Shown here piece after piece: positions 7,879 to 9,692 of a DNA stretch of 64,000 nt. Location: sequence record OP778609; one strand, written 5' to 3'. Position numbers and translations under genes: made by a program. Source of the stretch: Escherichia phage A73. How positions within the stretch are numbered: the first letter of the stretch is position 1; the number at the start of each line of letters is the position of its first letter. The notes below the pieces were generated by a model that did not search any database, had not been told where the DNA came from, and was given only the letters and a program-made list of their open reading frames with translations.

Positions 7879-8494
7879 TCAACCAGGGGCCGCAATAGTG
7901 GCCCTTGTCATATCCATCGGCGTGACTCTCCCAACTCTATTAATCCCTTCCCCATTTGGATCATCATAACTTACCTCATCTAATCATTAATCTAATCCCC
8001 TTTGGAATCTCTCCCCCACAAATCTAAACTAATCTGATAGCTTACCATAACATAATCCACAAAGAAAGAACTATTTTGCCCACAATGAAAGGCAGTTTTA
8101 AAGAGATACCATTGCCAGAGTATGGAGGTGGCGCGACCGTAGGGAGCGACACTATAAAACGAGTATACCCCTCCTACCGCTATGCGGTCATCGGTGATAA
8201 CCGATATCGTTACACGCTATCTGTTCTCTTCGTTTCCTCGTTTTATAGTGTCTATATGTAGTAATCTTTTATTCTTTGTCAATACATTATCGAAGATAAT
8301 ATTGAATTATTTAATGCTTTGTTATTCATATAAAGTGAATAGCTAGTCAATAGGAAGGCCGTTAGTGTGACCACACAAAGAGGCTATGCACCACAAAGAG
8401 AGGCCGTACTTGCCCACAAAAGGAGCAAACAAGCAAGGCGGTACGCCAGTTTGCTAATGAGCGTAGCTCTTTTGCTAGACAAAACTCTCTTCTC

Positions 8495-8653
8495 TCTTCT
8501 TTCCCAAAATAAATTTTTTCTTGCTTTTATTGCCAGAGTATGGCGGGGGGAATGTTGAAAAAATAGATCTTGACTGGTCAACATACGATACATCCTATCT
8601 TCTTTCCCAAAATAAATTTTTTCTTGCTTTTATTGCCAGAGTATGGCGGGGGC
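8495..8653. repeat. two copies of a ~55-bp direct repeat
   Basis: TCTTCTTTCCCAAAATAAATTTTTTCTTGCTTTTATTGCCAGAGTATGGCGGGGG at 8495-8550 and again at 8598-8653; partial third copy of TTGCCAGAGTATGG near 8113. Confidence 0.85.
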
Positions 8654-9336
8654 GCTCAGGCTATTGATGGCCCTGATGGAGTCGCTCCTGTACAGTTGGA
8701 ATAGTTCACAGTTGGATAGTAACAAGTTGGTATTATTCTTCCCACAAGTTGGAGCAGGCCAGAACTGGCGGGGCTTAGAGTCGCCTCACTTGTTGGACTG
8801 GAAGGAGGGCGCTTGCGGTGCGTATAAGTTGTATTATGTTAAATGCAGATCGAAATCGGTATTCTAAACCAGATTCAGAAGTCAATAGAAATCTTTAACT
8901 TTATTGTTGGGGCAGCACAACATTTTTCTTGACAAGTCGAATCAAAGATGTATTGTGGATTGAAAATAAATGAAGATAATGCTTGACTTCTTGGATATTT
9001 TGAAAACATCGGACCCCCTCCCCCTCCCCCACGGTCGCCGTGCCTGGCAGCAGTGCCAACGCACTAGACAAAAAAGATGCTTTCTTGCTGACGAAGAACA
9101 AGGTCAACAGACAACAGACAAGGCTGGTTAGACTGGTTAGCCTCTTCAGGCCAGTACCCTTTGGATATATTTGGGCAGGTACAGAAAAGGACCCACCCCG
9201 TCATTAGTGACTCAAAATTTTGGCGGGAGGGTAAAATAACTAAAAAGTGGTCGTTTAAAATTCAGGCTGGAGGTCCACTCAGAGTAGACGTATACTGGAA
9301 ATTATAAACTACAAGACGAGTGGATGTATGGACGTG

Positions 9337-9460
9337 ACTCCGTGGCATGAATGCCACTCTGTGGACAATAGGCATTACTCTGTGGCAAGAGAGGAGCCTC
9401 TGTGGACAATCGGAGTGCCTCGATAGGCAGAATGGACTTGACTCTGTGGGCAAAGTAGTG
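9337..9460. repeat. iteron array, CTCTGTGG(A/G/C)CAA motif, about 5 copies
   Basis: Copies spaced ~20-25 bp apart; reverse complement TTGTCCACA is one mismatch from the DnaA box TTATCCACA. Confidence 0.7.
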
Positions 9461-9499
9461 TGTCTCAGTAGGCCAACAGTGGTTACTCTTTAGGCAAAC

Positions 9500-9680
9500 T
9501 ACCTAATTTTGGGATGAACTGATATTTGTGGGAATCATTGTACGATATTTGGGCATTATTGTAGGTGGAGTACAACAGTTTGGAAGGACGATATAGTTTG
9601 GTGGGCACAACATTTTGGGATGAGCAGATGAGTTTGGTTGCAATCCAGATGCAAAAAGCACCCACTTTTGGGGTGCTCTC
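9500..9680. repeat. degenerate iteron array, (A)TTTGGG motif, about 8 copies
   Basis: ATTTTGGGA, ATTTGTGGGAAT, ATATTTGGGCATT, AGTTTGGAAGG, TTTGGTGGGCAC, ATTTTGGGATG, AGTTTGGTTGC, CTTTTGGGGTG at ~20-bp periodicity. Confidence 0.65.
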
Positions 9681-9692
9681 TGTAGTTCAGGA

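Follow-up and report, generated by a model that had tools for sequence, protein, structure and literature searches.

A predicted short direct terminal repeat in the gene-free region between converging gene blocks of Escherichia phage A73

What is the function of 1.8 kb of phage DNA that lies between two converging gene blocks and is crowded with short repeats? This question is raised by positions 7879-9692 of a 64,000-nucleotide (nt) stretch of Escherichia phage A73 DNA (record OP778609; "the window" below, whose given strand is called the + strand). An original prediction, made from the letters of the sequence, had offered three readings of this region: an equivalent of the injection-stop region of phage T5, a replication origin, or a terminal-repeat boundary. 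The analysis reported here argues for the last of these and against the other two. Positions 8478-9044 (567 bp) are likely to be the short direct terminal repeat (DTR) of a chromosome-end (concatemer-junction) packaging module of the T7 style, as predicted from homology to the ends of phages UPEC06, LL12, and KPP-1. Both predicted DTR boundaries, 8477^8478 and 9044^9045 (a caret marks the boundary), map by this homology inside the gene-free region.

A BLAST search of 50,697 phage records with window positions 7600-9900 as the query returned five relatives at 86-97% identity (W70, A5-4, A7_1, vB_EcoM-LTH01, and UPEC06), and no record beyond these five was found at E<=1e-5, even when a more sensitive search was included. 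Because all five relatives belong to the Vequintavirinae and are placed in the literature within or adjoining the genus Septuagintavirus, A73 is, as judged from this kinship, an rV5-like, Septuagintavirus-type myovirus (Vequintavirinae) and not a T5-like phage. A73 and the five relatives were aligned, and statements about the six phages refer to this alignment.

The position of the repeat follows from the ends of related phages. The UPEC06 record (MW250786), whose termini were set with PhageTerm, has identical first and last 462 nt, and this repeat, which is neither annotated nor discussed in the announcement, maps to window positions 8478-9044. A terminal redundancy of 459 bp was determined with PhageTerm for LL12/rV5 (genus Vequintavirus) (PMC6658697), and a 514-bp DTR with twofold read coverage was reported for KPP-1 (genus Mydovirus) (PMC9862379). 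LL12 and KPP-1 were deposited in the opposite orientation and were reversed before comparison. The three independently mapped boundary pairs of UPEC06, LL12, and KPP-1 align to the nucleotide with 8477^8478 and 9044^9045. The left boundary reads TTGCTA^GACAAAAC in the window and UPEC06, TTGCTA^AACACAA in KPP-1, and GTGTCA^GACAAG in LL12; the right boundary reads GTGCC^TGGCAGCA in the window and UPEC06, CCGCC^TGGCAGCA in LL12, and CCGTC^TAGCACC in KPP-1. Moreover, at least eight Vequintavirus records have the 459-bp block of LL12 exactly at their start or end; in rV5 this block falls within the published "non-coding" box. Because the mapped boundary pairs align and Vequintavirus records open or close at the LL12 block, we assign 8478-9044 as the predicted DTR of A73. 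Its 567 bp are made up of ≈462 bp (the UPEC06 length), a 103-bp insertion private to A73, and 2 bases from small indels; the insertion excepted, it is 90-99% conserved in the six phages.

The DNA around this block is free of genes. The + strand gene block ends with a stop codon at 7876-7878 and the - strand gene block with a stop codon at 9693-9695, so that the two blocks converge on the 1.8-kb stretch, a layout also found in LL12, KPP-1, and POP15. None of the 12 mechanical open reading frames (ORFs) of the stretch showed third-codon-position bias among the six phages (e.g., 11/13/9 variable sites), and indels among the six phages disrupt their reading frames. A coding role for 7879-9692 was rejected on these two grounds, and the earlier description of a non-coding block of 1.8 kb between + and - strand genes is borne out. 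The deposited relatives carry two to seven "hypothetical proteins" over the region (W70_247-251, A54_105-107, and seven UPEC06 coding sequences); the codon-position and frame analysis indicates that these are spurious. No tRNA genes were found in the gene-free region.

The boundaries themselves share a sequence feature. Each falls in the middle of a short, palindrome-like TGCYWGRCA site; only four such sites occur in the 64 kb, two of which are the boundaries. The left site, TGCTA^GACA on the + strand at 8473-8481, was located by the UPEC06 start base, by alignment of LL12 and KPP-1, and by a motif scan, and it places the predicted left chromosome end at 8478. The right site, TGCC^TGGCA at 9041-9049 (bottom strand TGCCA^GGCA), was located by boundary homology and the motif scan and places the predicted right end of the DTR at 9044. 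In W70 alone, a gene for a 160-amino acid (aa) HNH_3 endonuclease (W70_248; W70 7451-7933) is inserted after the position homologous to window 9054; lying 10 nt outside the right repeat boundary, W70_248 is probably a homing endonuclease next to a cut site.

Several observations weigh against a DTR at this position. The termini of A73 itself are predicted from homology only. The TGCYWGRCA motif was defined after the boundaries had been seen and was derived from them, and its genome-wide frequency shows no enrichment (5 matches compared to 3.4 expected). In addition, rV5 has been called circularly permuted, albeit without end mapping, the Certrevirus phages CB7 and phiTE have been reported as permuted on the basis of read depth and BAL-31 digestion, and one Vequintavirus phage, BpE1AUH, received a headful call in PhageTerm. 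These reports favor a different reading, in which the region is a headful pac region where terminase makes a single initiating cut and the packaged genomes are terminally redundant and (partly) circularly permuted. Because rV5, CB7, phiTE, and BpE1AUH were so described, and CB7 and the transducing phage phiTE nevertheless carry the homologous block with both sites, headful packaging deserves some weight. Set against it are the fixed ends mapped in LL12, KPP-1, and UPEC06, the many records that begin or end exactly at the block, and the presence of two copies of the cut site at a constant spacing of ≈440-460 bp, which would be superfluous for a single pac cut. We consider headful packaging from this locus unlikely and prefer the interpretation of 8478-9044 as a DTR.

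Contigs from the clade of A73 that end at the predicted boundaries would bear on the same point. In IMG/VR, a 17-mer of the right-boundary motif gave chance matches only, in unrelated GC-rich phages, and a 27-mer of the DTR core matched Certrevirus contigs only, with none from the clade of A73. A clade-specific 27-mer had no match in a scan of JGI metagenomes. No independent clade contigs ending at the boundaries were obtained, because the exact-protein look-up of a flanking gene returned W70 only. A limited check of the Septuagintavirus literature found no mention of termini, and no Chi sites or Chi-like clusters that could act as end protection were found. The "repeat_region" annotated in phage naswa was considered as a DTR and rejected, since it is a 34-nt feature.

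Inside the predicted DTR, five CA(C/A)(A)GTTGG units occupy 8690-8800 (+ strand); GTTGG occurs six times in the DTR and not at all in either flank, and it is also present in the POP15 block. The poly-C tract (CCCCCT x2.8) that had been noticed near 9011-9030 is present at 9014-9030 and is followed by a small hairpin, CACGG-TCG-CCGTG, at 9030-9042. A candidate sigma-70-like promoter, TTGACA-16-TATTGT (10 of 12 positions), at 8929-8956 on the + strand is 98-99% conserved and would direct transcription rightward across the right boundary.

The comparison establishes where the element lies, the homology of its boundaries, its pattern of conservation, and its lack of coding function. A packaging scheme can be proposed in which the assignment of proteins to DNA elements, the way in which the DNA is nicked, and the part played by the hairpin described below are all putative. 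The DTR is present once in the assembly and would stand at both ends of the virion DNA, and in concatemers one repeat copy would join successive genomes. We infer that a terminase complex recognizes this junction through the mirror-image arrays and the conserved blocks on both sides. It would then nick at the two inverted TGCYW^GRC sites, in the top strand at 8477^8478 and in the bottom strand at 9044^9045, and each nick would generate a 3' end directed into the repeat. From these ends, strand-displacement synthesis could copy the repeat and so provide a full copy for each packaged genome, as proposed for T7 and T3. A hairpin located 226 nt to the left would probably act as an accessory recognition or processing structure.

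The arrays that such a complex might recognize lie on both sides of the repeat and mirror each other. In the left flank, the C-rich short repeats CCCCATTTGG, CCCCTTTGG, CCCCCACAAATC, CCACAAAG, and TTGCCCACAA at 7935-8090 (+ strand; GC skew of -0.5 to -0.78) mirror the right-flank arrays and have inverted matches to 9445-9459 and 9513-9532. Closer to the DTR, three CCACA(C)AAAGAG or TTGCCCACAA units at 8367-8421 (+ strand), found by inspection of the sequence and a repeat search, are inverted versions of the right-flank CTCTGTGGRCAA units, and CTCTGTGGRCAA itself has minus-strand matches at 8076 and 8410. The polarity is also seen in word counts, which for left flank/DTR/right flank are 6/1/0 for CCACA and 0/1/5 for TGTGG, and in the GC skew, which changes from -0.78 at the left to +0.6 at the right of the region.

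In the right flank, ≈7 CTCTGTGGRCAA-type units occupy 9357-9497 (+ strand) with a phase of 20-24 nt (lags of 21-22 give z = 3.5-4.0), and their copy number varies among the relatives. The original prediction had counted about five such iterons; they are present, in a different number. Three copies are exact, all within 9357-9453, compared to an estimated ≈0.015 exact matches expected in 64 kb on both strands; a further copy has a 1-nt deletion (9378), and three are degenerate (9418, 9464, and 9486). Adjoining them, ≈7 (GATA)TTTGKGG-type units at 9507-9640 (+ strand) are 91-97% conserved, and relatives differ by whole 21-nt units. TTTGG occurs seven times in 9508-9667, compared to ≈0.2 expected, at spacings of 16-33 nt. 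In agreement with the earlier count of about eight TTTGGG-type iterons, eight TTTGG-type units are present when the variant TTTGTGG at 9525 is included, and the last (9666) is part of a terminator hairpin at 9652-9677. ATTTKGKGG-type words occur at chance level genome-wide, and only their local clustering and strand polarity are significant.

Some of these right-flank words recur across genera. GATAT/ATATTTG is enriched in the right flanks of LL12, KPP-1, and POP15. The right flanks of LL12 and POP15 contain GATATTT, TGTGG, and CTCTTCAGG in the orientation found in A73, and that of KPP-1 contains GATAT alone; CTCTTCAGG is confined to the right flank, where it occurs once in A73, twice in POP15, and four times in LL12. 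Conserved cross-genus blocks lie at 9141-9250 on the + strand, comprising CCTCTTCAGG (9141-9150), GATATATTTGGGCAGG (9164-9179), and the 37-nt block AAAATTTTGGCGGGAGGGTAAAATAACTAAAAAGTGG (9214-9250), which is common to Septuagintavirus and Certrevirus (PBES 02 and POP15). Within AAAATTTTGGCGGGAGGGTAAAATAACTAAAAAGTGG, GGGTAAAATA matches 9 of 10 positions of the T4-late-promoter-like motif reported for rV5, in an orientation antisense to the - strand operon. It counts against the proposed scheme that no binding protein was identified for any of the repeat arrays.

Iterons next to AT-rich DNA might instead mark a replication origin, in which repeats that are DnaA-box-like or bound by a phage initiator stand beside an unwinding element, possibly in addition to a function as a chromosome end. 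The arrays do adjoin a 120-bp AT-rich stretch (8240-8359; GC 0.21-0.26), next to which the iterons are poorly conserved (0.66-0.80 identity), and TTGTCCACA is, as had been noted before, literally one mismatch from TTATCCACA. However, the relaxed DnaA-box consensus TTWTNCACA has no match in 7879-9692 and seven elsewhere in the window, compared to 9.4 expected. The segments directly outside each boundary are the least conserved ones; they include the CTCTGTGGRCAA units (0.34-0.71 identity), which are dispensable in relatives, LTH01 having lost almost all of them. The switch in GC skew tracks the direction of transcription, as it does across the window and as was likewise reported for rV5. Finally, no initiator gene is adjacent, and the ORFs that flank the gene-free region have no Pfam match. 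No positive evidence for an origin was found, and we regard this reading as improbable, with a small probability left to it by the AT-rich stretch.

The T5 reading fares worse. It holds that the region contains an injection-stop signal within a long terminal repeat, at which a two-step transfer of DNA pauses. The resemblance is superficial and goes no further than the occurrence of repeats, palindromes, and words similar to a DnaA box close to the end of a genome. A73 falls outside the Demerecviridae, its relatives being all Vequintavirinae; the repeat of 0.46-0.57 kb carries no genes, compared to the gene-carrying terminal repeat of ≈10 kb in T5, of which there is no counterpart here; and no set of first-step-transfer genes lies between the end and the element. 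Because taxonomy and repeat size both contradict it, this reading is taken as excluded, with a probability close to nil. Thus, of the interpretations originally proposed, the terminal-repeat option stands, and the T5-type injection stop and the DnaA-dependent origin do not.

Another element of the left flank is a conserved hairpin. A GC-rich box, GGAGGTGGCGCGACCGTAGGGAGC, at 8124-8147 is followed by a perfect 16-bp inverted repeat (8148-8163 and 8237-8252), found by an inverted-repeat search; the 73 nt between its arms contain small hairpins. The structure lies 226 nt to the left of the DTR and folds with z ≈ -3 as DNA or RNA on either strand. Among the six phages, identity is 97-100% over its left arm and upstream box (8079-8198) and 0.89-0.95 over its right arm. 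An equivalent perfect inverted repeat of 16-21 bp, 190-380 nt from the boundary, is present in every lineage examined, including Certrevirus, Mydovirus, others, and Vequintavirus, where it is the outer inverted repeat of LL12. The arms exist in at least five different sequence versions, and one upstream box is common to most lineages. As read from these sequences, the hairpin is maintained by compensatory change across four genera, with no wobble pairs.

A small non-coding RNA could also account for part of this pattern, transcribed either from the hairpin element (8079-8260) or from the promoter-like site at 8929, and acting alone or besides a chromosome-end function. The near-100% conservation of 8079-8198, which exceeds that of the flanking genes, the stable fold, and the conserved sigma-70-like match are all consistent with this idea. 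By contrast, a scan of 7000-10500 gave no Rfam match at E<=1, no promoter/terminator pair brackets the hairpin element, and in every lineage the stem consists of Watson-Crick pairs only, with no G-U pair, and folds equally well on either strand. The perfect stem and equal folding imply that a structure at the DNA level fits at least as well, and we judge an RNA locus to be rather unlikely.

Two observations concern the surroundings of the hairpin. The motif ATTGCCAGAGTATGG(A/C)GG(T/G)GG occurs just upstream of the hairpin box (8111-8134) and again at 8529-8552 and 8632-8655; it is invariant in the six phages, and its copy close to the left DTR end is duplicated in A73. The record of PBES 02 (NC_028672) was opened exactly at the conserved hairpin, ending in ...GACCAATAGAAAACAGG and starting with CCTGTTTTCTATTGGTC, with the loop of ≈73 nt missing; either the assembly broke at the inverted repeat, or a real structure is hinted at.

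The insertion that lengthens the A73 repeat is a private structural variant at 8492-8652 (+ strand), found by a repeat search and the six-phage alignment. It consists of a 58-nt duplication (8492-8549 and 8595-8652; 98% identical copies) around a 54-nt inverted copy. The original prediction had correctly recognized a direct repeat present twice, with a size (≈55 bp) and coordinates (8495-8550 and 8598-8653) that are revised here. The 54 nt at 8550-8603 are a 100% reverse-complement copy of window positions 12814-12867, part of an RCC1-like gene that lies 4 kb distant. In each of the five relatives the 58-nt segment is found once, and UPEC06 also lacks the gene-derived 54-nt insert. The right junction of the insertion shows a 6-nt microhomology (TCTTCT), the left junction shows none, and the insertion starts 14 nt inward of the predicted chromosome end. 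These features suggest either a scar left by template switching or an artefact of assembly. A CRISPR-like mini-array of repeat-insert-repeat structure (8492-8652) was considered and rejected, because the relatives are single-copy, the insert comes from a gene of the phage itself, the junction has microhomology, and the repeat is 58 nt long. That the repeat-insert-repeat arrangement represents a programmed capture of sequence at the terminus is highly implausible. The source gene is one of three tandem paralogues (380, 414, and 399 aa) on the - strand at window 12219-15717 that encode RCC1-like beta-propeller repeat proteins, a gene family that is unusual for a coliphage.

Other features border the region. 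The + strand gene block is closed by a hairpin, AGGGGCC-8 nt-GGCCCTT, at 7885-7906 (+ strand), which is kept in the six-phage alignment; a further copy of this hairpin, with a T-run, stands behind the preceding gene at 7570-7593 (copy listed at 7578-7593). On the other side, the - strand operon ends in a rho-independent terminator, AGCACCC-CAAAAGT-GGGTGCT-TTTT, at 9652-9677 (- strand; 99-100% conserved). Far from the DTR, five tRNA genes (Met, Tyr, Gly, Gln, and Pro) are clustered on the + strand at window 61414-63124, just beyond a second strand switch near 59,000, where the GC skew changes sign.

If confirmed, true chromosome ends would fix the genome orientation and annotation of Septuagintavirus and other rV5-like phages. 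The packaging mode also bears on the risk of transduction by rV5-like phages, which are candidates for therapy and biocontrol, because packaging with a fixed-end DTR and headful packaging differ in transduction. The two predicted cut sites, the hairpin, and the repeat arrays are concrete cis-elements for engineering or packaging assays, and the comparison brings out a conflict in the literature on the packaging mode within the subfamily. More tentatively, the inverted pair of TGCYWGRCA sites ≈450 bp apart, the obligatory perfect DNA hairpin that lies 200-380 nt beyond one boundary and after the conserved GGAGGnGGCGCG box, and the mirrored protein-binding arrays may together form an undescribed end-processing system common to the Vequintavirinae; this is possible, although we hold it to be doubtful. 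Were it so, the 103-bp insertion would be a template-switching scar of the repeat-copying synthesis, and the circular permutation published for rV5 and Certrevirus would have to be re-examined.

How does this locus compare with systems already known? The closest counterpart is UPEC06, a member of the same clade with 87-93% identity, whose ends coincide with window 8478 and 9044. LL12/rV5 and KPP-1 belong to the same subfamily and share with A73 the gene-free position between converging transcripts and a similar repeat length, and LL12 and KPP-1 have right-flank repeats of the GATATTT/TGTGG/CTCTTCAGG type and a perfect inverted repeat in the left flank. They differ from A73 in sequence, which has diverged past BLAST detection, and the A73 repeat reaches 567 bp because of the private insertion. 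The long terminal repeat and injection-stop region of T5, and DnaA-box origins, resemble the locus in that repeats and palindromes cluster in non-coding DNA close to the end of a genome, but T5 belongs to another virus family, and the A73 repeat is ≈20 times shorter, gene-free, and without a consensus DnaA box.

The Certrevirus phages POP15, CR3, CR8, PBES 02, and phiTE have a block of ≈444 bp bounded by the same two sites. The sites are 440-446 nt apart in four Certrevirus genomes (including phiTE and CR3), and the predicted 445-nt block can be aligned over its full length in 21 Certrevirus records. The left site is the perfect palindrome TTTTGCC(A/T)GGCAAAA in POP15 and PBES 02, and in two of the four genomes, and TTGCTAG[AG]CAAAA in phiTE and one other contig; the right site is TGCC^TGGCAGC. 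The right-end block ...CCCCTCCCC..CCCCC..TCGCC(A/G)TGCC^TGGCAGC is conserved in Certrevirus, which also shares with A73 the GTGCGTATAAG(G/T)TGTATTATGTTAAAT core, the poly-C box, the right-flank AAAATTTTGGCGGGAGGG block, and the upstream hairpin. Because published experiments on CB7 and phiTE describe circular permutation, the block is no more than a possible DTR in Certrevirus, and the retention of both palindromic sites by phiTE, a phage described as permuted and transducing, conflicts with the literature.

A comparable system is the concatemer junction of T7 and T3, which comprises a terminal repeat of 160 bp flanked by the short-repeat arrays SRL and SRR, with the repeat duplicated during packaging. 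The need for repeat duplication has also been stated for T7-like Yersinia phages (PMC5923468). A73 differs from T7 in being a 140-kb myovirus with unrelated sequences and no involvement of a phage RNA polymerase promoter. A further difference bears against the T7 comparison. Only short imperfect inverted repeats were found at the T7 right end, and no long perfect one was found beside the T7 repeat. The A73 hairpin is therefore without a direct T7 analogue, and the palindromic boundary motif of A73 is likewise absent from the T7 right end. In common with the T7-like phages, A73 has a short non-coding repeat with poly-C stretches, internal duplications, and short-repeat arrays inside it and on both sides; in the T7-like phages the flanking arrays consist of 10-22-bp repeats and are likewise variable in length. 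In its non-coding repeat, its flanking arrays, and its length polymorphism in repeat units, A73 has the layout of a T7-type junction, in the sense that it would work like one and not that it belongs to that group. We conclude that the element is of a kind already known in related phages.

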